A stretch of 64,000 bases of DNA from Vicinamibacteria bacterium (GCA_965246965.1 CBDFGD010000001.1:218631-282630); one strand, 5' to 3'; positions 9,492 through 50,491 are shown, counted from the stretch's first letter. The notes: generated by a model from the letters alone, not told the origin. Made by a program: numbers and translations.

Positions 9492-10592
9492 CGGGGGTAT
9501 CCATTTAACCGGTGTAAACTGAGCCGGTGGATCAGCCTCGTGCTGGCACGCACTATCCGCGGTCCGTGGGCGAGTTCCAGGCCTGGTTCCGGACCGATGC
9601 GGACTGCCTGGAGTGGCTGCGGTGGCCCGCCAGCTTCGCCTGCTTGGACTGCGGCCATGATGGGGGCTGGCGGCTGGGCGACGGTCGCTTCATGTGCTCA
9701 GGGTGCGGCGGCCGTACGTCGGTGACAGCGGGCACGATCTTTGACCGGACGCGCACGCCGCTAACGGTTTGGTTCACCGCCTGCTGGCTGTTCGCCACCG
9801 GCAAGGACGGGATCTCGGCGCTGAGCCTGAAGCGGACGCTGGAGATCGGCTCCTACCAGACCGCGTGGGCGATGCTCCATCGGCTGAGGTCGGTGCTGGT
9901 GCGCCCGGGCCGGGACCGGCTGGCCGGGATGGTACAGGTAGATGAGACCTACATCGGCGGTGAGGAGGCGGGGCTGCGCGGCGGCCGGGCCAAAGGCAAG
10001 AAGGTTTTGACCGGGATCGCGGTGGAGGTCCGGGAGCCGAGAGGATTCGGACGGTGCCGGATGCTGCCGCTGACCGATGCGTCGGCCGCCTCGTTGCACG
10101 CCTTTGTAACGGCTCACGTCGAGCCGGGCGCGAGGATCGTCACCGACGGCTGGCAGGGCTACCGCGGGCTGGAGAAGCTCGGCTACGTCCACGACCGGCG
10201 CAGCCAGCGGGCCGCCCGAACCCGCGGGGAGGATCCCGGCGAGCTACTGCCCGCAGTGCACCGGGTCGCCTCGCTAGCCAAGCGGTGGTTGCTGGGTACC
10301 CACCAGGGCTCGGTGAACGACGCGCACCTGGCCAGCTACCTGAATGAGTTCGCGTTCCGCTTCAACCGCCGCACCTCCCGCAGCCGCGGGATGGTGTTCT
10401 ACCGAGTGCTCGAGCTCGCCGTCGCCCACGACCCGGTGCGCTACCAGGACCTCATCGCCACCCAGCGGCCCCGGGCAGTGCCGCCCTCGCAGCCGCAGGC
10501 GCGCGGGCACCCGCCGAGCCTGGAGCGCTCTCCAGCGAACCGCCCGTGGAGAACTGCCAACCTGGACTCCTCCGGTTAAATGGAGACCCCCA
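9492..10592 (+). mobile_element. IS1595-family (ISXO2-like) insertion sequence, 1101 bp, 21-bp IRs, 8-bp TSD CGGATCCT
   Basis: left end CGGGGGTATCCATTTAACCGG, right end reverse complement TGGGGGTCTCCATTTAACCGG; direct repeat cggatcct at 9484..9491 and 10593..10600. Confidence 0.85.
9527..10579 (+). CDS. ISXO2-like (IS1595 family) DDE transposase
   Basis: 350 aa with N-terminal zinc-finger CLDCGHDGGWRLGDGRFMCSGCGG and FTACWLFATGKDGISALSLKRTLEIGSYQTAW. Confidence 0.85.
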   Translation: MDQPRAGTHYPRSVGEFQAWFRTDADCLEWLRWPASFACLDCGHDGGWRLGDGRFMCSGCGGRTSVTAGTIFDRTRTPLTVWFTACWLFATGKDGISALSLKRTLEIGSYQTAWAMLHRLRSVLVRPGRDRLAGMVQVDETYIGGEEAGLRGGRAKGKKVLTGIAVEVREPRGFGRCRMLPLTDASAASLHAFVTAHVEPGARIVTDGWQGYRGLEKLGYVHDRRSQRAARTRGEDPGELLPAVHRVASLAKRWLLGTHQGSVNDAHLASYLNEFAFRFNRRTSRSRGMVFYRVLELAVAHDPVRYQDLIATQRPRAVPPSQPQARGHPPSLERSPANRPWRTANLDSSG

Positions 10593-18101: not shown

Positions 18102-18443
18102 TCAACTTTCAACAGATTTCGGGACTACACCGTTCGCGAGGGCAGCATGTCGCAGCCCGAGGAGGGTGGGAATGAACGAGTTCATGCTCGCAGGGGAAGT
18201 CGCGAAGCTATTGAATCGAACCCCGGCGGCGGTAAGAGCGGCAGCGGACGCCGGACGGCTTGCGGTAGCGGAGACAACTGAAAGTAAAGCGGACCCGGTT
18301 TTCTTGGACACGAAACTAGGGAAAGTCATCTTGTTCAAGGAGACTCGATCGATGAAGCAGGTCAGGCGCAAGAGGTCTGAGAGGAAGAAGGGAGTGGGCG
18401 AGACGGAGGGAGGGCGACCGGAGTTTCGCCCACCGGCGGCGCG

Positions 18444-18758
18444 GTGGTGGGCGCCTTGGGTCCCGGGCAGCGTTGGAGCGTGGCGCGCAAGCGGGAGGTC
18501 GCACTGCGGCTGCTGCGCGGGGAGTCACTCGAAGCGCTGTCTCGTGAGCTGTCCGTGGAGATGCACCGGCTGCAGCGCTGGCGTGATCAAGCCATGGCCG
18601 GGATCGACGAGTCGCTGCGGGAGCGCAATGGCGACCCGCTGAAGGTGGAGCTGGACGCGGCGGTCAAGCGGGTGGGCGAGCTCAGCATGGAGAACGAGCT
18701 GTTGCGGAAGAAGATCGGGGCGGCCCGCCCTTTGGCCTTCGGGAGGTCGCGGCGATGA
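18444..18758 (+). CDS. IS3-like OrfA (HTH + leucine zipper), N-terminally truncated by frameshift in this copy
   Basis: identical to OrfA of other copies from MVGALGPGQRW onward; upstream ATG at 18352 is in a different frame. Confidence 0.7.
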   Translation: MVGALGPGQRWSVARKREVALRLLRGESLEALSRELSVEMHRLQRWRDQAMAGIDESLRERNGDPLKVELDAAVKRVGELSMENELLRKKIGAARPLAFGRSRR

Positions 18759-19648
18759 GTGCGGCGATCTCCCCTGCGACAGGCCGGGCCTACGGGGTGG
18801 AGCGGGTGTGCCGGGTGTGGAAGCTGGCCCGCTCGAGCTACTACTCCCAGCTCGGCGAGGCGGCTCCTGAGATGGTCCGCGCTGGCCGACGTGGTCCCAA
18901 GCCCAAGGTGTCTGACGAGGAGCTGTTGCGGCTGATCCGAGAGGACCTGGCGGCCTCGCCGTTCGTAGGAGAAGGACATCGCAAGGTCTGGGCGCGGCTC
19001 AAGGTGCTGCGCCAGGTGCGCGTGTCGCGCAAGCGGGTGCTGCGGATCATGCGTGAGCACCACCTGCTGTCGCCGCGTCGGGTACGCCAGGGCGAGGGGC
19101 TGCTCCACGAGGGGACGATCACAACCGATGCGCCCAACCTGATGTGGGGGACGGACGGGGCGAGAGTTCTCACGGCAAAGGACGGCTGGGGCTGGATCTT
19201 CGTCGGCGTCGAGCACTTCAACAGCGAGTGCGTCGGCTACCACGTGTGCAAGAAGGGGACGCGCTACGAGGCCCTCCAGCCCATCGCCATGGGGCTGACG
19301 CAGCTCTTCGGCTCGGTCGAGGCGGGTGTGGCTCGTGGCCTCGAGCTGCGCATGGACCACGGGACGCAGTACCTCTCGGACCACTTCCTCAACCAGCTGC
19401 GTTTCTGGGGCATCACGCCCAGCTTCGCCTTCGTCGAACAGCCGCAGACCAACGGAGTGGCCGAGCGTTTCATCCGGACTCTCAAGGAACAGATCATTCA
19501 TGGCCGCGTCTTCCACACCCTCGAGGAGGTGCGCCAGGCCGTGGCTGCCTTCGTCAAGCGCTACAACCAGCAGTGGCGCGTCGAGAAGCTGGGATTCCTC
19601 ACCCCGCGCGAGGCCCGCGACCAGCACGGCCAGGGGAAGGCCGCGTGA
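18755..19648 (+). CDS. IS3-like OrfB DDE (rve) transposase
   Basis: WGTDGARV .. MDHGTQYLSDHF .. QTNGVAERFIRTLKEQ (D, D, E catalytic triad); ATGA overlap with orfA, in -1 frame. Confidence 0.85.
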   Translation: MSAAISPATGRAYGVERVCRVWKLARSSYYSQLGEAAPEMVRAGRRGPKPKVSDEELLRLIREDLAASPFVGEGHRKVWARLKVLRQVRVSRKRVLRIMREHHLLSPRRVRQGEGLLHEGTITTDAPNLMWGTDGARVLTAKDGWGWIFVGVEHFNSECVGYHVCKKGTRYEALQPIAMGLTQLFGSVEAGVARGLELRMDHGTQYLSDHFLNQLRFWGITPSFAFVEQPQTNGVAERFIRTLKEQIIHGRVFHTLEEVRQAVAAFVKRYNQQWRVEKLGFLTPREARDQHGQGKAA

Positions 19649-19797
19649 ACCTCGAGGTCATCAAAGAGGGGCTACCCCAGGTATGGACTCACCCCGCCGC
19701 GTCGATCCTGGGGCATCCTCGTGCGTCGTTTTCGGGATCGTCTGCCAAACGAACCCGAGATCGTCAAACTGGTGTCCAAGAAACCGGGCGCGGTACA

Positions 19798-20394
19798 GAA
19801 GTTGGTGATCATGCTGTACGTCGAGTTCCCCCCGTCCTCGTCGACACCGTAGCCTCGATAGAGGCTGGGAAACGAGGTGTGGATATCTTCGATGATGTAG
19901 ATCCCGCGTGATCGGAGGTGGGGAAAGAAGAACCCGAAGCTGACCTGCTGCTGCTCCATCGAGTGACCCCCGTCGTCGACCACGATGTCGAAGCCGGACC
20001 CGTGCTCATCGATGAACCGGGTCAGCTGCTCCCGGTTCGCCTGGTCCGCGACGAAGGTCCGGATCCTCTCTGTCTGGTGCTGCGACGCATCATCTATGTC
20101 GATTCCGAAGATCGCGGCACGAGAAAAATAGGCTTCCCACATGCGAACCGACTCGCCCCCCAGGACGCCGATCTCGAGCACCCGCTCCGCTCGACTTCGC
20201 AGCGGCGCGAAGAACGTGTCGTAGAGCTCTAAGTAGTTGTGGTGAGACGCGCACTTGTCCGTCTGGTGCTGCGCACACAGCTCCGCCAGAGTCGACACGT
20301 GCTCGTCCCCCCCAGGGTCGGCTACTGGGGTCGCGCACGCGACAGAGAGGCTCGTCGTGACGGAAAGTAGGAGCATCCAGGTCCGTCTCTTCAA
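19798..20394 (-). pseudogene. class I SAM-dependent methyltransferase lipoprotein, 3' end truncated by IS3 copy 1
   Basis: signal LLLSVTTSLSVAC; VLEIGVLGGESVRMWEAYF..IFGIDID; reading frame runs into the IS right end after ..STYSMITNF. Confidence 0.5.
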
Positions 20395-20490
20395 GCTCTT
20401 GCCTCCTTGGCGGCTGGCCCGTCGGGGAATTCCAACTCGCGCTCGGGGGTCGTTCGGTACGCCCGGATTCTAGCGTGCCGGGCCGGCGCG

Positions 20491-38655: not shown

Positions 38656-39366
38656 TCAACGGAGACGGGCGACGCTGACCGTGAGTGAGCTCTCGAAGCG
38701 TTTGATCAGGTCGAGATCGTCGCCCACGATCGCCAGCGTCTGGCTTCCTCGGTGAAGCAGGCGGACACCCAGTCCGCCCAGTCGTCTCTCGTACTCATCG
38801 GTGAGTCGGACGGTTCGATGGATGACGAACAGCGAGGCGACGCCGCGATCCGAGCTGTAGTAGAGGTGCGGAACCATCGACCCGCCGATCAGCGGGCAGT
38901 ATCTGCCGCCGACCAGCTCCAGCCCCCCGGCTGCCCCGGGGATGATCGGCATCTCGGTGCCCTGCTCCTCGAACCACGCCGTCACCCGGCCGCGATCCGC
39001 GCTCCACACCTTGGCAGGGAGCGGATCCTTGGCGAAGCACTTGGTGTGATCGAGAGCTACTTCGTAAGCGACGACACCCGGGGCGCCCCGGAACCAGAGC
39101 ACGGCGATGGCGAGGACGGCCGCGACGGGCAGCAGCCAACGCAGCGGTCGGCTCCGGCGCCGCAGCCGGCGGCGGAGCGCCGGCTCGAACCCGGACCGTG
39201 GCTCGACGGGCGACAGCCGTTCGAGCGCCTCGCGTACGCGACGCTCGGCGGCGACCTGCTCCGTGCAATCGGGGCACTGCGCGAGGTGTGCCTCCACTGC
39301 CTCGCGCTCGACTACTCCGAGCGCGTCGTCGACGTAACCGGTCACCTGCTCGGGCTGGCAGCTCAC
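38656..39366 (-). CDS. anti-sigma factor (zf-HC2, single TM)
   Basis: AHLAQCPDCTEQ zinc-finger, TM WLLPVAAVLAIAVLWF; 4-bp overlap with upstream ECF sigma. Confidence 0.65.
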   Translation of the reverse strand: MSCQPEQVTGYVDDALGVVEREAVEAHLAQCPDCTEQVAAERRVREALERLSPVEPRSGFEPALRRRLRRRSRPLRWLLPVAAVLAIAVLWFRGAPGVVAYEVALDHTKCFAKDPLPAKVWSADRGRVTAWFEEQGTEMPIIPGAAGGLELVGGRYCPLIGGSMVPHLYYSSDRGVASLFVIHRTVRLTDEYERRLGGLGVRLLHRGSQTLAIVGDDLDLIKRFESSLTVSVARLR

Positions 39367-39863
39367 TTCTTCTCCTCCCTTTCGGAGAGCGCCTTGCGCA
39401 GCAGCGCTCGGCCGCGATGGATGCGGGACATCACGGTCCCGATCGGGATGTCGAGTATCTTGGCGATCTCGTCGTACGTGAACTCCTGGACGTCCCTGAG
39501 AATGACGGCCGAGCGGAAGCCCTCGGGGATCTTTTCGAGCTCCCGACCCACGTCTTCACCGCCCGTGAAGAGAGCCCGTGCCTCGGGAGCGACGCCGGGG
39601 CCGTCGCCTCGAAGCTCGACCGTCGTCGGGCTCCGGCTCGCCCGCCGGTAGGCGTCCGTCCTGACCCGATGCAGGATCGTGTAGAGCCAGGCCCGGATGT
39701 TGGTTCCGGCCTTGTAGCGATCGAAGGCCCGATACGCGCGCAGATACGTCTCCTGGACGAGATCCTCCGCATCGTGCGCGTTGCGCGTCAGGCGGAAGGC
39801 GGTCCCGTAGAGGGATCTCATGTGGGGAAGTGCTTCCATGTCGAATCGTTCGTCGCGGTTCAA
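39363..39863 (-). CDS. ECF (sigma-70 group 4) RNA polymerase sigma factor
   Basis: region 2 DAEDLVQETYLRAYRAF, region 4 EFTYDEIAKILDIPIGTVMSRIHRGR. Confidence 0.85.
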   Translation of the reverse strand: MNRDERFDMEALPHMRSLYGTAFRLTRNAHDAEDLVQETYLRAYRAFDRYKAGTNIRAWLYTILHRVRTDAYRRASRSPTTVELRGDGPGVAPEARALFTGGEDVGRELEKIPEGFRSAVILRDVQEFTYDEIAKILDIPIGTVMSRIHRGRALLRKALSEREEKK

Positions 39864-40075
39864 GCCATCTGCTCGAGGCCGCTCTACTCGGGAAAACGCG
39901 GCCCCAGCCCCTCCTATTCCTCGACTCTCGAGGGCAGGTCGCCAGAGCTTACGCTCCTAACCGGCCGGGCCTGGATCGTCGCCCACCGAGCCACAATGCT
40001 GACGGCCGCGGGATTCTGGCACGCTGGGTGCGTTTCGGGAAGGTTCCGGCATCGCTGCCGGTTATCATCCAGCCC

Positions 40076-40701
40076 GTGTCGCACGCTTCAATCCTGCTCA
40101 TCTGGGCGCTTCTGGCCGCGGCGCCCGGCTCTGCGCAGGAGCCCGAGGCTCCGCCCGCCTACTTCGAAGAGGAGCCCACGGAGTGGAGCTTCGACTGGGG
40201 AACCGATACGGCGTTCACGCTTTCGGGCCTCGAAGATCCCTCGACGAACGCGACGAACGACAGGACGACCAACTTCGATGCGCTGTGGATGCGTCTGTAC
40301 GGCCGCCTCGAACGAGGCGATCAGGTGAAACTCGTCATCGACTTATACAGCGCGAATGCGCGCAGCCCGCGGATCTTCGGGTTGCACGCGAGGGTCCAGC
40401 CGCTCGACCAGCTGGGCTTCCGCGTGGGCCTGATCCCGCTGGTGTTCGGTGGCTGGCAGCAGCGGGCTGCCCCGAGCCACCAGCCCCTGATCAACCAGCC
40501 GCTCTTTTCTCAGTACCTCGTCCCGCTTCGCAACGACAGCGTCCCGCGAAGCGTCGACGAGCTGCTCTCGCAGCGCGGCCGCCAGGGCAGGACCTCCTAT
40601 CGCCTCGGCAACGACAACGGGAGAGTGGCCTCGATCGCCTACGAGCGTTGCTGGGACACGGGTCTCGAACTGCTCGAGAACGTTGGACGCTTCCGATACC
40701 C
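40076..40701 (+). pseudogene. secreted hypothetical protein, 3' end interrupted by IS1182-family element
   Basis: GTG start with signal VSHASILLIWALLAAAPGSAQEP; ORF reads into IS inverted repeat at 40702. Confidence 0.4.
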
Positions 40702-41439
40702 GCTAGGAGTCTGCGCGGCAGTAGTTCAGCCCGGGTGTGTCATTGTGCCTTGTGACCCGAGAGATCATCTTGCCTGGGTTAAACGGCAGTAGTGGGCTCG
40801 CGGACGAGTGCTCGCGAGGGAGGACGGGCGGATCCAAGGCCGGGTGGTGGTCATACCCAGACCATCTTCTGATTGAGTCTCCTGAGGTTGAGCGCCAAGC
40901 AAACGAGATTCCACTCGGCGCTGGTTTTCTCAAGCCCTCGAAGGCTGAAGGATTGGAAACCAAGCACAGCCTTGATCCATCCGAATGGCGGTTCGCCGAG
41001 TTTGCGCCGCTTGTACCACTTGCGACCACGTTTCGTCTTGAGCTTCGCCTTCATGCGGAGCGTCGCTTCGAGCTTCGAATTCGACGTTGGTGGAGAGTCT
41101 TTCTTTTCTCTCCCCAGAGCCACGAAACCGTCGATTCCGGTACGTTCCAAGTGCAGTAGGTTCTTTTCGGAACGGTAGTCGGCATCGGCCAGGGCACGCT
41201 TGGGCTTCTCACCGGTGTTGGCTTGAGCCGTTTTCAGCATCGGCTCGAGCTGACCGACATCCGCAGCGTTGTTGGTCAGCCCGGTCGCAACGATCAGCTG
41301 CGATTTCTCGTCGACGGCGGCTTGGGCATTGAAGCACTGCTGGTAGCCACTCGAATCCTTCATGATGCGGCTTTCGGGATCGGTGAAGTTGTCCTGCTTC
41401 TTGTCCGGAGGTACGCCAAATCTCCTTTTGAACTTTGGC
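40702..41439 (-). mobile_element. IS1182-family element, right-hand part (IRR + transposase C-terminal half)
   Basis: 20-bp terminal repeat GCTAGGAGTCTGCGCGGCAG at 40702..40721 (same 20-mer at 47847..47866); encodes ..PKFKRRFGVPPDKKQ..YKRRKLGEPPFGWIKAVLGFQSFSLRGLEKTSAEWNLVCLALNLRRL (DDE_Tnp_1_6-like C-terminus). Confidence 0.7.
41426..41439 (+). repeat. 14-bp target duplication TTTTGAACTTTGGC (partner at 48632..48645 as reverse complement)
   Basis: identical 14-mers abut the left end of IS3 copy 2 and the right end of IS3 copy 3. Confidence 0.75.
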
Positions 41440-41506
41440 TAAAGCGGACCCGGTTTTCTTGGACACGAAACTAGGGAAAGTCATCTTGTTCAAGGAGACT
41501 CGATCG

Positions 41507-41920
41507 ATGAAGCAGGTCAGGCGCAAGAGGTCTGAGAGGAAGAAGGGGGTGGGCGAGACGGAGGGAGCCCGGAGGGCGACCGGAGTTTCGCCCACCGGCG
41601 GCGCGGTGGTGGGCGCCTTGGGTCCCGGGCAGCGTTGGAGCGTGGCGCGCAAGCGGGAGGTCGCACTGCGGCTGCTGCGCGGGGAGTCACTCGAAGCGCT
41701 GTCTCGTGAGCTGTCCGTGGAGATGCACCGGCTGCAGCGCTGGCGTGATCAAGCCATGGCCGGGATCGACGAGTCGCTGCGGGAGCGCAATGGCGACCCG
41801 CTGAAGGTGGAGCTGGACGCGGCGGTCAAGCGGGTGGGCGAGCTCAGCATGGAGAACGAGCTGTTGCGGAAGAAGATCGGGGCGGCCCGCCCTTTGGCCT
41901 TCGGGAGGTCGCGGCGATGA
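41507..41920 (+). CDS. IS3-like OrfA (full length)
   Basis: AAGGAG RBS 9 nt upstream of ATG; MKQVRRKRSERKKG..; leucine-zipper ELSMENELLRKKI. Confidence 0.75.
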   Translation: MKQVRRKRSERKKGVGETEGARRATGVSPTGGAVVGALGPGQRWSVARKREVALRLLRGESLEALSRELSVEMHRLQRWRDQAMAGIDESLRERNGDPLKVELDAAVKRVGELSMENELLRKKIGAARPLAFGRSRR

Positions 41921-42810
41921 GTGCGGCGATCTCCCCTGCGACAGGCCGGGCCTACGGGGTGGAGCGGGTGTGCCGGGTGTGGAAGCTGGCCCGCTCGAGC
42001 TACTACTCCCAGCTCGGCGAGGCGGCTCCCGAGATGGTCTGCGCTGGCCGACGTGGTCCCAAGCCCAAGGTGTCTGACGAGGAGCTGTTGCGGCTGATCC
42101 GAGAGGACCTGGCGGCCTCGCCGTTCGTAGGAGAAGGACATCGCAAGGTCTGGGCGCGGCTCAAGGTGCTGCGCCAGGTGCGCGTGTCGCGCAAGCGGGT
42201 GCTGCGGATCATGCGTGAGCACCACCTGCTGTCGCCGCGTCGGGTACGCCAGGGCGAGGGGCTGCTCCACGAGGGGACGATCACAACCGATGCGCCCAAC
42301 CTGATGTGGGGGACGGACGGGGCGAGAGTTCTCACGGCAAAGGACGGCTGGGGCTGGATCTTCGTCGGCGTCGAGCACTTCAACAGCGAGTGCGTCGGCT
42401 ACCACGTGTGCAAGAAGGGGACGCGCTACGAGGCCCTCCAGCCCATCGCCATGGGGCTGACGCAGCTCTTCGGCTCGGTCGAGGCGGGTGTGGCTCGTGG
42501 CCTCGAGCTGCGCATGGACCACGGGACGCAGTACCTCTCGGACCACTTCCTCAACCAGCTGCGTTTCTGGGGCATCACGCCCAGCTTCGCCTTCGTCGAA
42601 CAGCCGCAGACCAACGGAGTGGCCGAGCGTTTCATCCGGACTCTCAAGGAACAGATCATTCATGGCCGCGTCTTCCACACCCTCGAGGAGGTGCGCCAGG
42701 CCGTGGCTGCCTTCGTCAAGCGCTACAACCAGCAGTGGCGCGTCGAGAAGCTGGGATTCCTCACCCCGCGCGAGGCCCGCGACCAGCACGGCCAGGGGAA
42801 GGCCGCGTGA
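41917..42810 (+). CDS. IS3-like OrfB DDE transposase
   Basis: identical to 18755..19648 except R/C substitution. Confidence 0.85.
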   Translation: MSAAISPATGRAYGVERVCRVWKLARSSYYSQLGEAAPEMVCAGRRGPKPKVSDEELLRLIREDLAASPFVGEGHRKVWARLKVLRQVRVSRKRVLRIMREHHLLSPRRVRQGEGLLHEGTITTDAPNLMWGTDGARVLTAKDGWGWIFVGVEHFNSECVGYHVCKKGTRYEALQPIAMGLTQLFGSVEAGVARGLELRMDHGTQYLSDHFLNQLRFWGITPSFAFVEQPQTNGVAERFIRTLKEQIIHGRVFHTLEEVRQAVAAFVKRYNQQWRVEKLGFLTPREARDQHGQGKAA

Positions 42811-42959
42811 ACCTCGAGGTCATCAAAGAGGGGCTACCCCAGGTATGGACTCACCCCGCCGCGTCGATCCTGGGGCATCCTCGTGCGTCGTTTTCGGGAT
42901 CGTCTGCCAAACGAACCCGAGATCGTCAAACTGGTGTCCAAGAAACCGGGCGCGGTACA

Positions 42960-43487
42960 GCGCTGGCACGAGGCCTGGATCTCATCACTTGGACCTTCGA
43001 CCCCCTCCAGGCGAGAAATGCACATCTGAACCTGAGTCGGCTCGGCGCTTTCGGCGCGGAGTTCATCCCGAATCTCTACGGCGTGACATCTTCGCCGCTC
43101 CATCACGATCTCCCGACTCATCGCGTGCTGATTCATTGGGAGCTCAACGCTCCGCGCGTCGTCGAGCGAGCGCAGCTGGACCCCCGCTCGGCGCCTGGGC
43201 CGGCGCCCGATCTTCCGCGCCTCAACCAGGTCGAGTGGCAAGCCGGCTGGCCGGTGACTTCGGAAGTGTCGCTGGACATCGACGCTCCGAGGCTCCTGCT
43301 CGAGATCCCGCCGGACTTCAACACTCTCGCGGGCTCGGCGCCGAACGTGGCGAGCGATTGGCACGAGAAGGTCTCACGGGCGATGCAGACCTTTCTCGGT
43401 CGCGGCTACCAGGCCGTCGAGCTGATTTCGACCGACGACGGGGGTCGGCGCCGGCCGCTCTATCTCCTCGAGCGCCAGGAACAGTGA
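42960..43487 (+). pseudogene. GNAT acetyltransferase C-terminal half (begins with 14-bp TSD GCGCTGGCACGAGG)
   Basis: ALARGLDLITWTFDPLQARNAHLNLSRLGAFGAEFIPNLYG..; N-terminal half is at 50166..50491 (-) next to IS3 copy 3. Confidence 0.7.
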
Positions 43488-43493
43488 CGCTGG

Positions 43494-44406
43494 CTAGTCC
43501 ACTTCGACCGTAATACCGCGCTCGGCCGTATCCAGGACCAGCGCCTCCGACTGGACGCCAGCTCTCAGCCACGCCTCCCGCATCGCCGCGGCGATGTCGC
43601 CGTGGCCAGACCTCGCGAACGCGACCAGGCTCGGGCCCGAACCCGACAGAGTGACGGCGGCGGCGCCCGCCTCGAGCGCTGCGGTCCGCACGTCTGCGAA
43701 ACCCCGCACGTGGGGTTGCCGCAGCGGCTCGTGCAGCTCGTCATAGGCGACGCGCGCGAGGAGAGCGTAGTCGCCGACTCGCAGCGACTCCACCAGAAGC
43801 GCGACCCTGCCGGACGACGCCGTCGCCACCGAGAGTGGCACGCTCTCTGGAAGCAATGCCCGCATCTGGGCGGTACCGAGTCGGAAGCTCGGCGTGGCCA
43901 CGACCAGTCGCGCGGCAGTGATCGAGATCCGGCGACTGAGCGGTCCGTCGGCGACTCGAGTCGAGAGCGTCAGCCCGCCGAGCAACGCCGGAGCCACGTT
44001 GTCAGGGTGTCCCTCGAGCGCGACCGCCGCGTCCAGTCTCTGCACCTCGTCAGCGCCGACCTCGAGAAGCGTCGCAGCGGCGGTCACCCCCGCCACTACG
44101 GCCGCTCCGGACGAGCCAAGACCCGCGGACACCGGAATCCGGATGCGCTGCACGATGCGCAACGGCGGCAGCGAGCGGCCGACCTTCGCGGCGAGAGCCT
44201 CGGCCCCACGCAGCACCAGGTTCGACCCGTCGGTCGGGATCGATCGGGCATCGCGACCCTCGACCTGGATGCTGGCCGTCGACCCCCCCCCCGTGGCCTT
44301 CTCCACGACGACCACATCGCGGAGCTCGAGCGCGAGCCCGACGCAGTCGAAGCCCGGCCCAAGGTTGCTCGTGGATGCGGGAACCTCGATGCTGACGCGC
44401 CTCAAG
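43494..44406 (-). CDS. thrB: homoserine kinase
   Basis: NLGPGFDCVGLAL and GHMP motif RIPVSAGLGSSGAAVVAG; probable TTG start overlapping thrC stop. Confidence 0.8.
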
Positions 44407-45523
44407 CCCGGAGCATTCGGTCCAGCGCGTCGAGCTGCGGCTCGATCGTCGGGATGTCGGGGAGCCGGCCGGTGACGATGTCCGGGTCTTTCAGACCGTG
44501 CCCCGTGCAGATCACCACGACCAGCCTTCCTGCCAGGCTGAGGCGTCCGGCCCGAACCTCGGACTTCAAGCCGGCCAGACCGGCCGCCGAGGCCGGCTCG
44601 ACCCACAGCCCCTCGGACGCCAGGCGCATCTGCGCGGCAATCAGCTCCGCGTCGGGAACCGCGACGATGCGCCCTCCGGACTCACGGGCGGCGCGCAGCG
44701 CTTCCTCCCCGCGGACCGGCCGCCCGATCCGAATCGCGGTCGCCACGGTCTCCGGGTTCTCGACGTCGTGGCCCAGCACGAGCGGCGCCGCACCGCTGGC
44801 TTGCACGCCGAGCAACTGTGGCAGCTCGGCCCGCCCGAGCGAGTGATACTGGGACAGGCCTCTCCAGAGCGCCGTGATGTTGCCTGCGTTCCCCACCGGG
44901 AGTGCGATCAGGTCGGGGGCTCGTTCCAACTCATCGCAGATCTCGAACGCGACAGTCTTCTGCCCCTCGATGCGATACGGGTTGAGCGAGTTCACCAGCG
45001 TGACAGGACGGCTCTCGCAGAGCTCCCGAACCAGGTCGAGCGCTTCGTCGAATGACCCCTCGATCTGCGCCACGCGAGCCGCGTGGGCCATGGCGCCGGC
45101 CAGTTTGCCGGCGGCGACGTTTCCGCGCGGGATCAGAACCAGGCAAGTGAGGCCCGCTCGCGCCGCGTAGGCCGCGGCGCTGGCCGCCGTGTTGCCCGTG
45201 CTCGCGCACACGACGGAGGTGGCCCCGGCGTGCAGGGCCTGAGTCATCGCGACGGTCATGCCGCGATCCTTGAACGATCCAGTGGGGTTGCCGCCTTCGA
45301 ACTTGGCGAAGAGCTGGGCCGCGCCGATCTCTGCGGCGAGGCGGGGGAAGCCGATGAGCGGGGTTGCCCCTTCGTGCAGCGTCACGGGGTTGTCCCGACC
45401 CAGGACGTCGATCAGGTCGCGAAACCGGGCCAGCACGCCTCCTGGGCGCCTCGTCCCTCGTACCGTCGAGCTCACGGCGAACCGTCGCCCGTCTCGCTCG
45501 CCCGCGTCGGATCGGAGCTCCAC
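44402..45523 (-). CDS. thrC: threonine synthase
   Basis: GNPTGSFKDRGMTVAMT (PLP Lys), fold-type II; exact start uncertain (overlaps upstream gene). Confidence 0.8.
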   Translation of the reverse strand: MELRSDAGERDGRRFAVSSTVRGTRRPGGVLARFRDLIDVLGRDNPVTLHEGATPLIGFPRLAAEIGAAQLFAKFEGGNPTGSFKDRGMTVAMTQALHAGATSVVCASTGNTAASAAAYAARAGLTCLVLIPRGNVAAGKLAGAMAHAARVAQIEGSFDEALDLVRELCESRPVTLVNSLNPYRIEGQKTVAFEICDELERAPDLIALPVGNAGNITALWRGLSQYHSLGRAELPQLLGVQASGAAPLVLGHDVENPETVATAIRIGRPVRGEEALRAARESGGRIVAVPDAELIAAQMRLASEGLWVEPASAAGLAGLKSEVRAGRLSLAGRLVVVICTGHGLKDPDIVTGRLPDIPTIEPQLDALDRMLRA

Positions 45524-46314
45524 TCGCTCCAGGACCCGGCGTAGAGCCGTCCGCGCAGGCCTGCCAGCTCGAGAGCGAGGAGGTCATGGCACGCCGTCAC
45601 GCCGGAACCGCAGTAGACGGTCGGCTCGATTCGCTCTGCTCCGAGCGAGGCGTATCTTGCCCGCAGCTCTTCAGCCGTTCGGAACACCGGGGCGTCATCG
45701 CCGGTGAGGTTGTCGGCAAACGGCGCGTTGACCGCTCCCGGAATGTGTCCCGCTCGTGGATCGAGGGGCTCGGTGTCACCGCGGTAGCGCTCGGGCGCTC
45801 GCGCATCGAGCAGCAGCTCGGACCCTGGAACATCGCTCCGCGTGACGACCCAACCGGGACGCTCGCGTGCGCTGAACGAGCCCGGCGTAATGTCGGGCAG
45901 CTCCCGAGTCACTGGCCGACCTTCGGCGACCCATCTCGCCAGACCTCCATCGAGGAGCGCAACGTGATCGTGACCGAACGCCCGGAGCATGTACCAGACC
46001 CTGGCGGCGATGGCTCCCGCCACGTCGTCGTATGTGACCACGGAGACCCCGTCGGACACTCCGATCCGGCCCATCACCTCGGCCACCTGGGAGGCCGCTG
46101 GCCAGGGGTGGCGACCGATCGGACCCCCGCGCTCGCCCCCCGGCGCGGAGAGGTCGCGATCCAGGTCGAGGAAGACCGCCCCCGGGAGGTGACCGGCCCG
46201 GTAGGCATCGACGCCCTGCCGCGCCGGATCGGCATACCAACGCGCGTCGATGATGCAGACGTCCCCGCGTCCGAGCCTCGGCTCCAGCTGCTCTGTCGAA
46301 ATCACAGGGTGCAT
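45472..46314 (-). CDS. tandem-rhodanese thiosulfate/3-mercaptopyruvate sulfurtransferase
   Basis: two rhodanese domains; active-site loop YCGSGVTACH. Confidence 0.75.
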   Translation of the reverse strand: MHPVISTEQLEPRLGRGDVCIIDARWYADPARQGVDAYRAGHLPGAVFLDLDRDLSAPGGERGGPIGRHPWPAASQVAEVMGRIGVSDGVSVVTYDDVAGAIAARVWYMLRAFGHDHVALLDGGLARWVAEGRPVTRELPDITPGSFSARERPGWVVTRSDVPGSELLLDARAPERYRGDTEPLDPRAGHIPGAVNAPFADNLTGDDAPVFRTAEELRARYASLGAERIEPTVYCGSGVTACHDLLALELAGLRGRLYAGSWSEWSSDPTRASETGDGSP

Positions 46315-46563
46315 GAGTTACAGATGTCCAACGGGAGCCGCGAGCTCGAGACCCACGACGCGGGCTAGCTCCTCGCCCGCCGCGAGTGAGGCGAGCGCCC
46401 TCGATGCGCCCGTGGAACAGCGGCGGCTCGCGGCGCGCACGCAGGTCCGCGTGAGCGAGGCATCCCAAGTGAGACATCGCGAGAATAGCATGGGGGTCGG
46501 GTCCGACCCGGCCGAGCGACGGCCGTATACTCCGCTCCTCGGTTACGAGAGGAGCGCCGCACG

Positions 46564-46887
46564 ATGCCGAAGCCCGATCGTCAGGTTCTCGTCTGCCTCA
46601 ACGCACGGCCGCCGGGCAACCCCAAGGGCTCCTGCGGCGAGAAGGACGCGCAACGACTCTACGACGCGCTGCGCGACAGGGTAAAGGAACTCGGGCTCGA
46701 GACCGTGATGGTCAACCGGACCAGCTGCCTCAAGCACTGCAGCCAGGGCGCGACGATCTCCGTGCAGCCCGACAACCTCTGGTACGCGAGAGTGACGGCC
46801 GAAGACGTCGACGAGCTGTGTCAGTCGCAGCTCGTCGATGGCCGCCCGGTCGAGCGGCTGATCATGCCCGACATTCCCTGGGAGTGA
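46564..46887 (+). CDS. thioredoxin-like [2Fe-2S] ferredoxin
   Basis: 107 aa; Cys at 11, 24, 55, 59 (VCLNARP..GSCGEKD..SCLKHCSQG) typical of 2Fe-2S_thioredx family. Confidence 0.7.
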   Translation: MPKPDRQVLVCLNARPPGNPKGSCGEKDAQRLYDALRDRVKELGLETVMVNRTSCLKHCSQGATISVQPDNLWYARVTAEDVDELCQSQLVDGRPVERLIMPDIPWE

Positions 46888-46897
46888 GGACGGGCGG

Positions 46898-47269
46898 CTA
46901 CGACCGGCCGGATGGGCCGCCGGCTTTCGGTCCGCGGCGCGGCTGAAACGCCGGGTTCACCCGAGCCAGCTCTCGCAGCAGGGCGTCCGGGTCAATCTCG
47001 GCGTCTCGTACGAATTGGTTGATCTCGCGCGCGAACTCGGCGATCGCATCCGGCCGTCCCGAGGCCGTCTTGTGGATCACGGTGCGGGTGCGAATCCTCC
47101 CGTCGGCGATCAGCTTCTCGATGTGGCTCAAGCGCGAGGGGCTCCATATCCGGTGCCCCTTCTTGTTGCGCGGCGGCTCGGGTACCTTGCCTGCGTAGAG
47201 CCAGTTGAGCAGGGTCTGCCTGCTGACTCCGAGCCGCTGCGCCACTTGTAGCGTCATCAGGTATTTCAT
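46898..47269 (-). CDS. excisionase-family HTH (HTH_17/MerR-like) DNA-binding protein
   Basis: LTLQVAQRLGVSRQTLLNWLYAGKVP. Confidence 0.55.
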   Translation of the reverse strand: MKYLMTLQVAQRLGVSRQTLLNWLYAGKVPEPPRNKKGHRIWSPSRLSHIEKLIADGRIRTRTVIHKTASGRPDAIAEFAREINQFVRDAEIDPDALLRELARVNPAFQPRRGPKAGGPSGRS

Positions 47270-47272
47270 CGT

Positions 47273-47842
47273 TCAACGAGCCAGCGAGAGCTGCAGCGCG
47301 TATACGTCCTCTTCCAGATTCGGCTCGAGCTCGATCTCGGTTCGCTGATAGACCGCTTTCACGGCCACGTGCTCCCAGAATTGGTACACGATGCCGGCCT
47401 CGAGGCGGCGGCTGTCGGCTTCCCACGAGATGGGCGTGCCACGCTTCGGCACCACATCGGAGTGGATCAGTCCGCTGTAGCGGGCGGCGAGGCGGACTCC
47501 CCCGGGGACGTTCACCGCCAACTCGCCGTAGTAGCCGTGAGTCTCCAAGGTCTCGGCGATGAAGGGCGAGCCGTAGCGGCTGAGGATCCACTCGCCGAAA
47601 AGCTCGAAACGCTCCGAGGTCCAGCCCAGATCGGCACCGAATGCGTCTTGCCTGAAATCGTCCAGCGAGCGCCCGCCGGGCAACTCGAAGCCGACGTCTT
47701 TCCGGAGGTAGCGGCCCTTGGCGAAGGATGCGCCGAGGAACGCCCTGTCCCAGGCGTCCAAGGTGACCCTGCCGTGAATTCCGGGCCCGCGAGGGGCCTG
47801 CGTTTCGCCCGGCCTCACGCTGACGCCCGGCACACCGGCCAT
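47273..47842 (-). CDS. hypothetical protein (possible outer-membrane beta-strand protein), start abuts IS1182 end
   Basis: alternating hydrophobic pattern; ATG directly adjacent to the IS1182 terminal repeat; may be the distal part of the gene at 40076..40701 prior to the inversion. Confidence 0.35.
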   Translation of the reverse strand: MAGVPGVSVRPGETQAPRGPGIHGRVTLDAWDRAFLGASFAKGRYLRKDVGFELPGGRSLDDFRQDAFGADLGWTSERFELFGEWILSRYGSPFIAETLETHGYYGELAVNVPGGVRLAARYSGLIHSDVVPKRGTPISWEADSRRLEAGIVYQFWEHVAVKAVYQRTEIELEPNLEEDVYALQLSLAR

Positions 47843-47846
47843 GGCG

Positions 47847-48645
47847 GCTAGGAGTCTGCGCGGCAGGAACGAAATCGGGTGAATGAGCGTTTTTGAAGTT
47901 ATGGGAACGAGTTTCCGTCCGTACAGTCCTGACCAATCGAGTTTGTTTCCGTCGAATCCACGAGACTGGCTTCCGGAGGGTCATCCTTCGTTTTTCATCT
48001 CGGATACGGTGGAGGCGATGGATGTGCGTGCTTTCTACGAGCGCTACGAGGGCGATGGACGTCGGAACCGACGATTCGATCCTCGAATGATGCTGAAGGT
48101 TCTGATCTACGGCTATGCGACAGGGACGTTTTCGTCTCGTGGGATCGCGAAGAAGCTGGAAGAGGATGTCGCATACCGTTATTTGAGCGGAGGCAATTTC
48201 CCGGCACACCGGACGATCAGTGATTTCCGTTGTGACCATTTGTCCCAGTTTCGATCTGTATTCGTCCAAGTCGTGCGTCTGGCTCAAGAAGTGGGTTTGG
48301 TCAAGCTTGGGACGTTGATTCTGGATGGAACGAAGGTCAAGGCGAATGCCAGCAAGCACAAGGCGATGAGCTACGAGCGTATGAAGAAAACGGAGAAACA
48401 GCTCCGTCGAGAGATTCGGGCTATCACCGCTCTTGCGAAACAAGAAGATGCTGCGGAAGACGTCGAGTTTGGTCCTGATTTTCGTGGCGACGAACTGCCA
48501 GAAGAGCTGGCGCGCCGAGATTCACGGCTCAAGAAAATCCAAGCAGCGAAGGCACGTCTGGAGGCCCGTCAGAAGGAAGAAGATCAGCAGGCCGGACGTC
48601 GGCCAGGGGATGACAAGGAATCGAAGCGAGGGCCAAAGTTCAAAA
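47847..48645 (+). mobile_element. IS1182-family element, left-hand part (IRL + transposase N-terminal half), truncated by IS3 copy 3
   Basis: terminal 20-mer GCTAGGAGTCTGCGCGGCAG; transposase N-half 47883..48645 (..KHKAMSYERMKKTEKQL..) ends ..RGPKFK at the 14-bp TSD. Confidence 0.7.
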
Positions 48646-48794
48646 TGTACCGCGCCCGGTTTCTTGGACACCAGTTTGACGATCTCGGGTTCGTTTGGCA
48701 GACGATCCCGAAAACGACGCACGAGGATGCCCCAGGATCGACGCGGCGGGGTGAGTCCATACCTGGGGTAGCCCCTCTTTGATGACCTCGAGGT

Positions 48795-49688
48795 TCACGC
48801 GGCCTTCCCCTGGCCGTGCTGGTCGCGGGCCTCGCGCGGGGTGAGGAATCCCAGCTTCTCGACGCGCCACTGCTGGTTGTAGCGCTTGACGAAGGCAGCC
48901 ACGGCCTGGCGCACCTCCTCGAGGGTGTGGAAGACGCGGCCATGAATGATCTGTTCCTTGAGAGTCCGGATGAAACGCTCGGCCACTCCGTTGGTCTGCG
49001 GCTGTTCGACGAAGGCGAAGCTGGGCGTGATGCCCCAGAAACGCAGCTGGTTGAGGAAGTGGTCCGAGAGGTACTGCGTCCCGTGGTCCATGCGCAGCTC
49101 GAGGCCACGAGCCACACCCGCCTCGACCGAGCCGAAGAGCTGCGTCAGCCCCATGGCGATGGGCTGGAGGGCCTCGTAGCGCGTCCCCTTCTTGCACACG
49201 TGGTAGCCGACGCACTCGCTGTTGAAGTGCTCGACGCCGACGAAGATCCAGCCCCAGCCGTCCTTTGCCGTGAGAACTCTCGCCCCGTCCGTCCCCCACA
49301 TCAGGTTGGGCGCATCGGTTGTGATCGTCCCCTCGTGGAGCAGCCCCTCGCCCTGGCGTACCCGACGCGGCGACAGCAGGTGGTGCTCACGCATGATCCG
49401 CAGCACCCGCTTGCGCGACACGCGCACCTGGCGCAGCACCTTGAGCCGCGCCCAGACCTTGCGATGTCCTTCTCCTACGAACGGCGAGGCCGCCAGGTCC
49501 TCTCGGATCAGCCGCAACAGCTCCTCGTCAGACACCTTGGGCTTGGGACCACGTCGGCCAGCGCAGACCATCTCGGGAGCCGCCTCGCCGAGCTGGGAGT
49601 AGTAGCTCGAGCGGGCCAGCTTCCACACCCGGCACACCCGCTCCACCCCGTAGGCCCGGCCTGTCGCAGGGGAGATCGCCGCACTCAT
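48795..49688 (-). CDS. IS3-like OrfB DDE transposase (copy 3)
   Basis: 297 aa identical to copy 2 OrfB. Confidence 0.85.
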   Translation of the reverse strand: MSAAISPATGRAYGVERVCRVWKLARSSYYSQLGEAAPEMVCAGRRGPKPKVSDEELLRLIREDLAASPFVGEGHRKVWARLKVLRQVRVSRKRVLRIMREHHLLSPRRVRQGEGLLHEGTITTDAPNLMWGTDGARVLTAKDGWGWIFVGVEHFNSECVGYHVCKKGTRYEALQPIAMGLTQLFGSVEAGVARGLELRMDHGTQYLSDHFLNQLRFWGITPSFAFVEQPQTNGVAERFIRTLKEQIIHGRVFHTLEEVRQAVAAFVKRYNQQWRVEKLGFLTPREARDQHGQGKAA

Positions 49689-50098
49689 CGCCGCGACCTC
49701 CCGAAGGCCAAAGGGCGGGCCGCCCCGATCTTCTTCCGCAACAGCTCGTTCTCCATGCTGAGCTCGCCCACCCGCTTGACCGCCGCGTCCAGCTCCACCT
49801 TCAGCGGGTCGCCATTGCGCTCCCGCAGCGACTCGTCGATCCCGGCCATGGCTTGATCACGCCAGCGCTGCAGCCGGTGCATCTCCACGGACAGCTCACG
49901 AGACAGCGCTTCGAGTGACTCCCCGCGCAGCAGCCGCAGTGCGACCTCCCGCTTGCGCACCACGCTCCAACGCTGCCCGGGACCCAAGGCGCCCACCACC
50001 GCGCCGCCGGTGGGCGAAACTCCGGTCGCCCTCCGGGCTCCCTCCGTCTCGCCCACCCCCTTCTTCCTCTCAGACCTCTTGCGCCTGACCTGCTTCAT
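49685..50098 (-). CDS. IS3-like OrfA (copy 3)
   Basis: MKQVRRKRSERKKG.. one substitution (A->V) vs copy 2. Confidence 0.75.
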   Translation of the reverse strand: MKQVRRKRSERKKGVGETEGARRATGVSPTGGAVVGALGPGQRWSVVRKREVALRLLRGESLEALSRELSVEMHRLQRWRDQAMAGIDESLRERNGDPLKVELDAAVKRVGELSMENELLRKKIGAARPLAFGRSRR

Positions 50099-50165
50099 CG
50101 ATCGAGTCTCCTTGAACAAGATGACTTTCCCTAGTTTCGTGTCCAAGAAAACCGGGTCCGCTTTA

Positions 50166-50491
50166 CCTCGTGCCAGCGCGGAGCCGCGCTGCGCACGCTT
50201 GAGCCCCAGGCCGACCCCTCGTCGACGGTACTCGGGCCGAACAGCCAGCATGTCGGAGTGGAGGTGGGCCACTCCGCCCTGCAGGGCCGGGAAGGCATAG
50301 CAGAACCCGATCGCTTCGCCCTCCGCCGTTTCCGCGAGGAGCATCAATCCCCCCGCATGGAGTGTGGCAATCAGCTGGATCGTCGGCGTGATGTCCAGAT
50401 CAGCGAGGCTCCACACGTCCCGCTGGAGCGCGACGCACGAGTCGGCGTCCTCCCGACCTCGAGCCTCGCGTATCGCGATCTCTCCGGTCAT
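50166..50491 (-). pseudogene. GNAT acetyltransferase N-terminal half
   Basis: ..IGFCYAFPALQGGVAHLHSDMLAVRPEYRRRGVGLGLKRAQRGSALARG; ends in the 14-mer duplicated at 42960..42973. Confidence 0.7.

Follow-up and report, generated by a model that had tools for sequence, protein, structure and literature searches.

How have the halves of three genes come to lie kilobases apart, each breaking off at the edge of an insertion sequence (IS)? The question is raised by a stretch of 64,000 nucleotides from a Vicinamibacteria bacterium (GCA_965246965.1 CBDFGD010000001.1:218631-282630), the whole of which we call the window and number from its first letter. In it, two copies of an IS3-family element lie in opposite orientation on either side of a block that carries thrB and thrC, and a first-pass annotation of the same DNA had taken this arrangement for the outcome of an IS-bounded inversion. 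Our analysis supports that reading. Because the two IS copies have exchanged their target duplications, because turning the block back restores three genes and because relatives keep the ancestral gene order, the 5,686-bp block 42960..48645 appears to have been turned round since its ancestral state, and either breakpoint falls within one of the two inverted copies. Swapped target duplications at the ends of an IS-bounded inversion are a signature known from textbooks, and the locus described here is a new but ordinary instance of it.

Two inverted IS3-family copies with exchanged flanks

The arms of the inverted repeat, 1520 nt each, occupy 41440..42959 on the plus strand (copy 2, with orfA at 41507..41920 and orfB at 41917..42810) and 48646..50165 on the minus strand (copy 3), and they enclose a spacer of 5686 nt. 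They differ at one single position, IS nt 207, which is C in copy 2 and T in copy 3 and changes Ala to Val in OrfA of the latter. The pair of near-identical 1520-bp copies in opposite orientation, from which the first-pass annotation had started, is thus borne out, down to one nucleotide of difference.

What makes the pair informative are the 14 nt next to each IS end. Read in the orientation of the element, copy 2 has TTTTGAACTTTGGC on its left and GCGCTGGCACGAGG on its right, while copy 3 has GCGCTGGCACGAGG on its left and TTTTGAACTTTGGC on its right. Each of these 14-mers occurs exactly twice in the 64 kb and both times abuts an IS end: GCGCTGGCACGAGG at 42960..42973 (+, right flank of copy 2) and, as reverse complement on the plus strand, at 50166..50179 (-, left end of copy 3); TTTTGAACTTTGGC at 41426..41439 (+, left flank of copy 2) and, again as reverse complement on the plus strand, at 48632..48645 (-, right end of copy 3). 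The site duplicated as GCGCTGGCACGAGG lies within a GNAT gene, the one duplicated as TTTTGAACTTTGGC within the transposase gene of an IS1182-family element. One exact 14-mer pair at such fixed positions would be expected by chance at a rate of about 4^-14. When the block 42960..48645 is un-inverted in silico, copies 2 and 3 each come to stand in a perfect 14-bp direct repeat, which is what the first-pass annotation had described; it had also staked its case on both 14-mers being exactly duplicated, and they are. Its estimate of the inverted block at about 4.9 kb has to be corrected to 5,686 bp, however, as a length of 4,887 bp is obtained only if the enclosed piece of the IS1182 element is left out.

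Un-inversion rejoins three split genes

The GNAT gene is divided between 50166..50491 on the minus strand, which lies beyond the inverted segment and holds codons 1-108 and a further 2 nt, and 42974..43487 on the plus strand (the C-terminal part, inside the segment and convergent with thrB). If the reverse complement of the former is joined to the latter and one GCGCTGGCACGAGG is kept, a continuous open reading frame (ORF) of 279 codons with GNAT Pfam domains results. Its product is 74-81% identical to homologues of 277-279 amino acids (aa) over 97-100% of its own length, and the alignment runs through 279 columns with zero gaps, the junction (…KRAQRGSALARGLDLITW…) falling within a nearly invariant stretch.

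The IS1182-family element behaves in the same way. Its left part (47852..48645, +) lies inside the segment and comprises a terminal repeat and the N-terminal part of the transposase gene from the ATG at 47883; its right part (40707..41425, -) lies outside and holds the C-terminal part with the stop codon at 40851..40853, followed by the other terminal repeat. When 47883..48645 is followed by 40851..41425, read as its reverse complement, and one TTTTGAACTTTGGC is kept, a 445-codon ORF results. Against the NCBIfam IS1182 model (cut-off 270) its product scores 359.3 bits, in a single match that extends over the junction. Since 14 is not a multiple of 3, only joins that retain a single copy of the 14-mer keep the frame; with zero or two copies it is broken. 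Reading through the junctions in this manner, with joins of 279 and 445 codons, confirms the reciprocal placement of the GNAT and IS1182 transposase halves at the IS ends.

These were the two split genes that the first-pass annotation had recognised; a third one had escaped it. An outer-membrane-protein-like (OMP-like) gene, which adjoins the genes for an anti-sigma factor (38674..39366, -) and an ECF sigma factor (39417..39863, -), has its N-terminal part at 39830..40706 (+; signal peptide, no Pfam family), outside the segment. Its C-terminal part lies inside, at 47273..47847 (-), and is followed by the MerR gene. Rejoined, the protein of about 400 aa covers 93-99% of Acidobacteriota hypothetical proteins of 400-410 aa at 43-52% identity. 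In this third gene, too, the two halves are separated by the left breakpoint.

Here the interruption is by the IS1182-type element itself, whose ends are identical over 20 nt (40702..40721 and 47847..47866), in direct orientation as the sequence now stands and inverted once the block is turned back. The 20 nt are made up of a 15-nt repeat, a G and the CTAG of the target (40703..40706, with the other copy at 47848..47851). With one CTAG kept, the OMP-like protein reads RFRYPLAAMAGVPG, compared with RYRVAAMEGSPG in the homologue consensus, and has zero gap at the junction. As this restores a sequence of homologue length, CTAG is best taken as the target duplication of the IS1182 element, which would then be about 1515 bp long, nested at this site and flanked by a 4-bp duplication. 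A join from which the entire 20-nt terminal identity had been removed was rejected, for it leaves a 2-residue gap at the junction relative to the homologues.

The base composition of the block is in line with its changed orientation: GC skew is -0.036 in its native part (42960..47846) as opposed to +0.002 to +0.026 in all flanking blocks, a difference that only restates an opposite ancestral orientation and has no power to separate a real inversion from a misjoin.

The IS ends also create ORFs of their own at the broken GNAT gene. On the minus strand, GNAT codons 1-108 run in frame through the left end of the IS into orfA, which gives a 268-aa GNAT-N::OrfA fusion ORF (49685..50491). On the plus strand, an ORF at 42807..43487 begins within the IS right end and reads into the C-terminal part of GNAT; it corresponds to a 226-aa protein (P0006) present in public protein collections and derived from the 628,132-bp contig that is the source of the window. 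Fragments annotated beside an IS, such as this IS-end::GNAT-C product, can accordingly be genes that were split first by an insertion and then by an inversion.

Relatives keep the un-inverted gene order

Independent evidence for the ancestral arrangement comes from gene order elsewhere. The closest relative of the GNAT gene, on an ENA metagenome scaffold, shares a single 1.8-kb piece with PilZ (+) and convergent thrB (-), the GNAT gene (+) being intact and thrB 77% identical to that of the window. In the window, the equivalents of these neighbours are far apart: PilZ and GNAT-N at 50.8-50.2 kb (-), GNAT-C at 42.96-43.5 kb (+) and thrB at 43.5-44.4 kb (-). Two more distant loci (L082, L089) have the order GDSL lipase, 72-aa ORF, PilZ and GNAT, preceded in L082 by peptidase M90, and this order corresponds to 53.1 to 50.2 kb of the window. 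For the other breakpoint, a Vicinamibacteria metagenome-assembled genome (MAG) (L085) and a further locus (L086) carry anti-sigma zf-HC2 (-), ECF sigma70 (-), OMP-like (+) and MerR (+) contiguously, genes which map in the window to 38674..40699 and, reversed, to 47860..46955. Both breakpoints are thus spanned by uninterrupted collinear DNA in relatives, as un-inversion predicts. Together with the exchanged duplications and the restored genes, this gene order is what supports the IS-bounded inversion proposed by the first-pass annotation.

The best relative of the GNAT protein is 81% identical. Such neighbours as have a name belong to the Vicinamibacteria (Acidobacteriota), with identities of 50-63%. 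A 35-nt sequence of the empty site in the GNAT gene and a 35-nt sequence of the IS end were both absent from the metagenome collection, and exact look-up of the rhodanese, PilZ and P0006 proteins of the window in a gene-position index matched no contig.

In a related genome of 6.5 Mb, the genes for M90 and the GDSL lipase are separated by two to three tandem transposase genes of IS630 type (DDE_3), whose strand differs between its two assemblies (L081, L082). The relatives are likewise IS-rich, and their M90-GDSL neighbourhood is variable.

A 14-bp duplication is native to the IS lineage

One could object that duplications of 14 bp are suspiciously long for an element of this kind, and the first-pass annotation had itself worried that the 14-mers might be k-mer overlaps left behind by the assembler. 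In the IS3 family, the duplications described measure 3 bp (IS3, IS51 and IS150 groups), 4 bp (IS407) or 5 bp (IS2) (PMC10045372). We therefore turned to reference genomes in which OrfB has relatives at 62-69% identity and checked the duplications there. A 1420-bp relative, present in dozens of copies in three long-read alphaproteobacterial MAGs, is flanked by an exact 14-bp direct repeat in 33 of 60 non-redundant copies; four more read 15 bp (a chance extra base), five have 14 bp with one mismatch and the rest have none. Single copies with 14 bp were found in an Acidobacteriota MAG (L002), in Geothermobacter hydrogeniphilus (L006), in a gammaproteobacterial MAG (L007) and on a Burkholderia gladioli plasmid (L091). 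The 33 exact duplications are all different in sequence, without any consensus among them for the target site (no more than 0.3 bit per position).

The duplication length native to this IS lineage is thus 14 bp, and the 14-mers of the window are genuine target duplications. Given that the same length recurs in unrelated genomes, the worry about assembler overlaps can be laid to rest. The length itself equals the class of about 3-4 bp plus 10-11 bp, i.e. about one helical turn. In this context, it is worth recalling that IS481 members and the IS1202 group have long duplications (about 15 bp in some, 15-17 and 24-29 bp in others) and that the lengths found in IS481, IS1202 and the eukaryotic IS481EU elements fall into discrete classes about 10 bp, or one helical turn, apart (PMC10045372). 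Long target duplications also have a practical side, in that they allow IS-mediated rearrangements to be traced with near certainty.

Two arrangements met among the related copies deserve mention in their own right. In an alphaproteobacterial MAG (CAUVXB020000002.1; L074, 3283..6123) two related IS copies stand head-to-tail with a 1-bp spacer, …GCGATACA G TGAGTCGG…, and have no flanking duplication. Such a tandem IS dimer is what copy-out-paste-in elements form as their reactive intermediate, although here it could also be a feature of the assembly. On CBDDBZ010000019.1, two copies (L026, L034) lie about 19 kb apart in opposite orientation, and the 14-mer CCCGCGACAAGCCG stands to the left of one and to the right of the other, the remaining flanks being unmatched. 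Such a partially exchanged duplication suggests an IS-mediated rearrangement in that genome too.

Family assignment of the inverting element

Which family does the element belong to, if its duplication is so long? OrfB has the Pfam domains HTH_21, rve and rve_3, and OrfA a weak HTH_Tnp_1. Concatenated, OrfA and OrfB score 188.6 bits on the NCBIfam IS3 model (cut-off 160) and cover profile positions 6-369 of 369. OrfB alone stays under the cut-off, at 153.2 bits, because the model covers the OrfAB fusion. On the IS481 model the score is 93.8 bits against a cut-off of 224, and this score, along with the presence of two ORFs instead of a single transposase ORF, led us to reject membership in the IS481 family. 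Plasmid-borne relatives are annotated as 'IS3 family transposase', and the best OrfB match among GTDB representatives is 69% identical.

The organisation of the two genes points the same way. They lie in 0/-1 relative frames, with the stop codon of orfA and the start codon of orfB sharing an ATGA both here and in 11 relatives. A slippery heptamer, CCCTTTG, is found at 41890..41896 and has the X_XXY_YYZ form in the orfA frame. In all 11 relatives (L001, L002, L004, L006, L007, L012, L013, L050 and L090-L092), as in the window IS, CCCTTTG/A stands 28 nt ahead of the orfB ATG, in the midst of sequence that has diverged. Because the heptamer is conserved between diverged flanks and fits the orfA frame, an OrfAB fusion is likely to be made by -1 frameshifting at this site.

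As for the termini, copy 2 begins with 5'-TAAAGCGGACCCGG and ends with ...GCGCGGTACA-3'. The left end of the window IS, TAAAGCGG (at 41440 and 50165), starts with 5'-TAAAG, compared with 5'-TGAG in the relatives, and the right end (...GGTACA) closes with the canonical CA-3', as it does in the relatives. IS2 likewise has a left repeat that ends in TA, which there forms part of a junction promoter (PMC3219604).

Taken with the IS3 family as a whole (IS911, IS2, IS3, IS150, IS407), the window IS has in common the 0/-1 orfA/orfB arrangement with a slippery heptamer ahead of the orfA stop, an HTH_21 domain together with an rve-type DDE domain (WGTD...DHGTQY...NGVAERF, where a K follows the E at a distance of seven residues), terminal inverted repeats that are imperfect and finish with ...CA-3', and a length of about 1.4-1.5 kb. 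It differs in the 14-bp duplication, in a slippery motif other than the common A6G and in its 5'-TA start. With IS481, the IS1202 group and IS481EU it shares a related rve-type DDE transposase and the long duplication class, but those elements have a single transposase ORF, unlike the two-ORF frameshift organisation of IS3 seen here. By transposase, gene organisation and frameshift site, the inverting element is hence placed in the IS3 family, as a variant in duplication length.

A search of the literature, with ISfinder entries lying outside its scope, brought up no report of a bacterial IS3-family element with a 14-bp duplication. We would tentatively suggest, as a possibility that we do not quite lean towards, that the inverting IS stands for a widespread and apparently undescribed IS3-family clade, characterised by two ORFs, a CCCUUUG/A site, an rve-type DDE transposase and invariably a 14-bp duplication. 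On the narrower point of whether the clade is undescribed, we see the chances as about even. If the suggestion is true, the class 'one helical turn longer', documented only for IS481, IS1202 and IS481EU, would extend to the IS3 family, and there would be natural pairs (3 bp versus 14 bp) with which to study how integrase-like transpososomes space the two strand transfers. The occurrence of a 14-bp IS3-type lineage over at least five phyla or classes bears on how rve-type transposases arrive at discrete duplication lengths, about one DNA turn apart.

How the inversion may have arisen

The history that we favour, and consider rather probable, consists of two independent insertions and a subsequent homologous recombination by the host between the inverted copies. 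To begin with, an IS1182-family element would have inserted into the CTAG of the secreted OMP-like gene, between the ECF-sigma pair and MerR. An IS3-family element would then have entered the IS1182 transposase gene and duplicated TTTTGAACTTTGGC, and a second IS3-family copy, 5.7 kb away and in opposite orientation, would have entered the GNAT gene and duplicated GCGCTGGCACGAGG. Finally, recombination between the 1.5-kb inverted copies would have flipped the block and left each copy with one duplication from either site. The order of the two IS3-family insertions, a RecA-type recombination in the last step and the identity of the assembled with the cellular orientation are parts of this history that we infer.

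There is ample precedent for the last step. Dispersed IS copies are documented to recombine with one another, commonly causing rearrangements and leaving duplications missing or exchanged (PMC11708052). In inversions mediated by IS150 or IS1 in the E. coli long-term evolution experiment (PMC11708052), the bounding copies are near-identical and inverted, as they are here; as here, too, the copies of such known inversions lack a direct repeat of their own and carry one half from each insertion site, and un-inversion restores the split genes. The present case differs in that the segment is small (5.7 kb), in that one breakpoint lies in an IS nested within another IS and in that the exchanged duplications measure 14 bp, which makes for an unusually unambiguous signature.

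Several points weigh against this history. The final sequence is also what a one-step intramolecular transposition would produce; exactly the present arrangement would result if the assembler had taken the wrong way out of a collapsed 1.5-kb repeat in its graph; our searches brought up no second assembly of the species, and the un-inverted form with both IS copies was not observed. The first two of these amount to explanations in their own right.

In the one-step route, the junction between the two terminal inverted repeats (IR-IR junction) formed by a copy resident in the IS1182 element, as a tandem dimer or an equivalent intermediate, would have attacked the GNAT gene on the same chromosome, and this single reaction would have given rise to the second, inverted copy, to the inversion and to the split 14-bp duplication, with no homologous recombination involved. 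It predicts the exact flank pattern observed and does so with one event fewer, and it sits well with copies that are only 5.7 kb apart and differ by 1 nt. Copy-out-paste-in elements including IS2, IS3, IS150 and IS911 do form tandem dimers, whose IR-IR junctions lead to intramolecular deletions and inversions (PMC9333248), and a tandem dimer of a related IS with a 1-bp spacer exists in L074. Tandem-dimer intramolecular transposition, as in IS30, IS21 and IS911, likewise ends in an inversion bounded by inverted IS copies with a split duplication, and unlike the history of two insertions it needs neither a second independent insertion nor host recombination. Dimer-mediated inversions are, however, known mainly from engineered junctions and from other IS rather than from this element, the 64-kb window contains no tandem dimer, and inverted repeats of 1.5 kb recombine frequently, which suffices by itself. 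To our minds the one-step route is, on balance, unlikely.

An assembly artefact would require that the cells have the ancestral orientation (with both copies present, or with one per strain) and that the assembler left the collapsed IS repeat by the wrong exit. All short IS-flank junctions are the same in either orientation, so that only the linkage across 1.5 kb differs, and the source is apparently an assembly from an environmental sample, the closest relatives being MAG or metagenome contigs throughout. On the other hand, the two copies keep their 1-nt difference and have not been collapsed, and the source contig of 628,132 bp crosses at least five IS copies in 64 kb, among them three at 99.7% identity or more. 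Since such contiguity practically needs reads much longer than 1.5 kb, which resolve the repeat, we regard a misjoin as quite improbable. Small inversions in IS-rich MAGs from long reads may be polymorphic, and a check on the reads is advisable before synteny or strains are compared.

The idea of a composite transposon, with the inverted IS copies and the thrBC block inserted as one unit, draws on the anatomy of Tn5 and Tn10, in which an inverted IS pair brackets cargo. It is refuted by the flank pattern and, in our estimate, highly improbable: the outer flanks form no direct repeat (TTTTGAACTTTGGC versus CCTCGTGCCAGCGC) and are halves of genes that are completed inside the unit, and in relatives the supposed cargo shows synteny with the adjoining chromosome. 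As to a programmed switch, in which a dedicated site-specific invertase would flip the block to regulate genes, the likeness to segments of the Hin/Gin/Fim type goes no further than a boundary of inverted repeats and is contradicted by the anatomy, for the repeats are whole transposable elements with target duplications of their own, the block ends in genes already disrupted by insertions, no promoter-gene relationship is altered and family scans of selected (not all) ORFs in and beside the segment revealed no serine or tyrosine recombinase, so that we give the idea next to no credence.

Consequences of the inversion

Between the C-terminal part of GNAT and the pieces of the OMP-like gene and the IS1182 element, the inverted segment carries thrB (43494..~44400, -), thrC (44402..45523, -), a gene for a rhodanese/3-mercaptopyruvate sulfurtransferase-like protein (45472..46314, -), a 2Fe-2S ferredoxin gene (46564..46887, +) and the MerR/HTH_17 gene (46898..47269, -), all assigned with Pfam/NCBIfam. 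The inversion disrupts no further gene, as insertions had earlier broken the genes for GNAT, the OMP-like protein and the IS1182 transposase. Moreover, rhodanese, thrC and thrB move as a unit with their upstream intergenic region, which they have in common with the divergent ferredoxin gene. Because these genes travel with their upstream region and no additional gene is broken, the inversion is probably neutral, and in principle it is reversible. The event is in itself of little weight; its value is that of a clean example of how IS elements reshuffle bacterial chromosomes.

Other insertion sequences and genes of the window

A third member of the same IS population, copy 1 (18285..19797, +; 1513 bp), lies outside the inversion. 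Relative to copies 2 and 3 it has a 7-bp deletion and three single-nucleotide polymorphisms, the deletion falling between GGAGG repeats and shifting the orfA frame after codon 20. With flanks that read CAACTGAAAG|IS|GAAGTTGGTG, it shows no target duplication, and both flanking 14-mers are unique in the window. Since the duplication is missing and the 14-mers have no partner there, copy 1 has probably been rearranged as well, with a partner outside the window, or has suffered an adjacent deletion. Inspection of 18163..18284 and 19798..20400 revealed the start of a small HTH-like ORF (+) on its left and, on its right, a gene for an S-adenosylmethionine (SAM)-methyltransferase-like protein (-, Methyltransf_24) with its C-terminus cut off.

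A transposase gene of IS1595 type (ISXO2-like) is located at 9518..10579 (+), which brings the window to at least five IS copies in 64 kb (three of IS3 type, one of IS1182 type and one of IS1595 type). The region is otherwise ordinary chromosome, and its other genes include those for glycogen phosphorylase, a TRAP transporter, FabA and Ser/Thr kinases.

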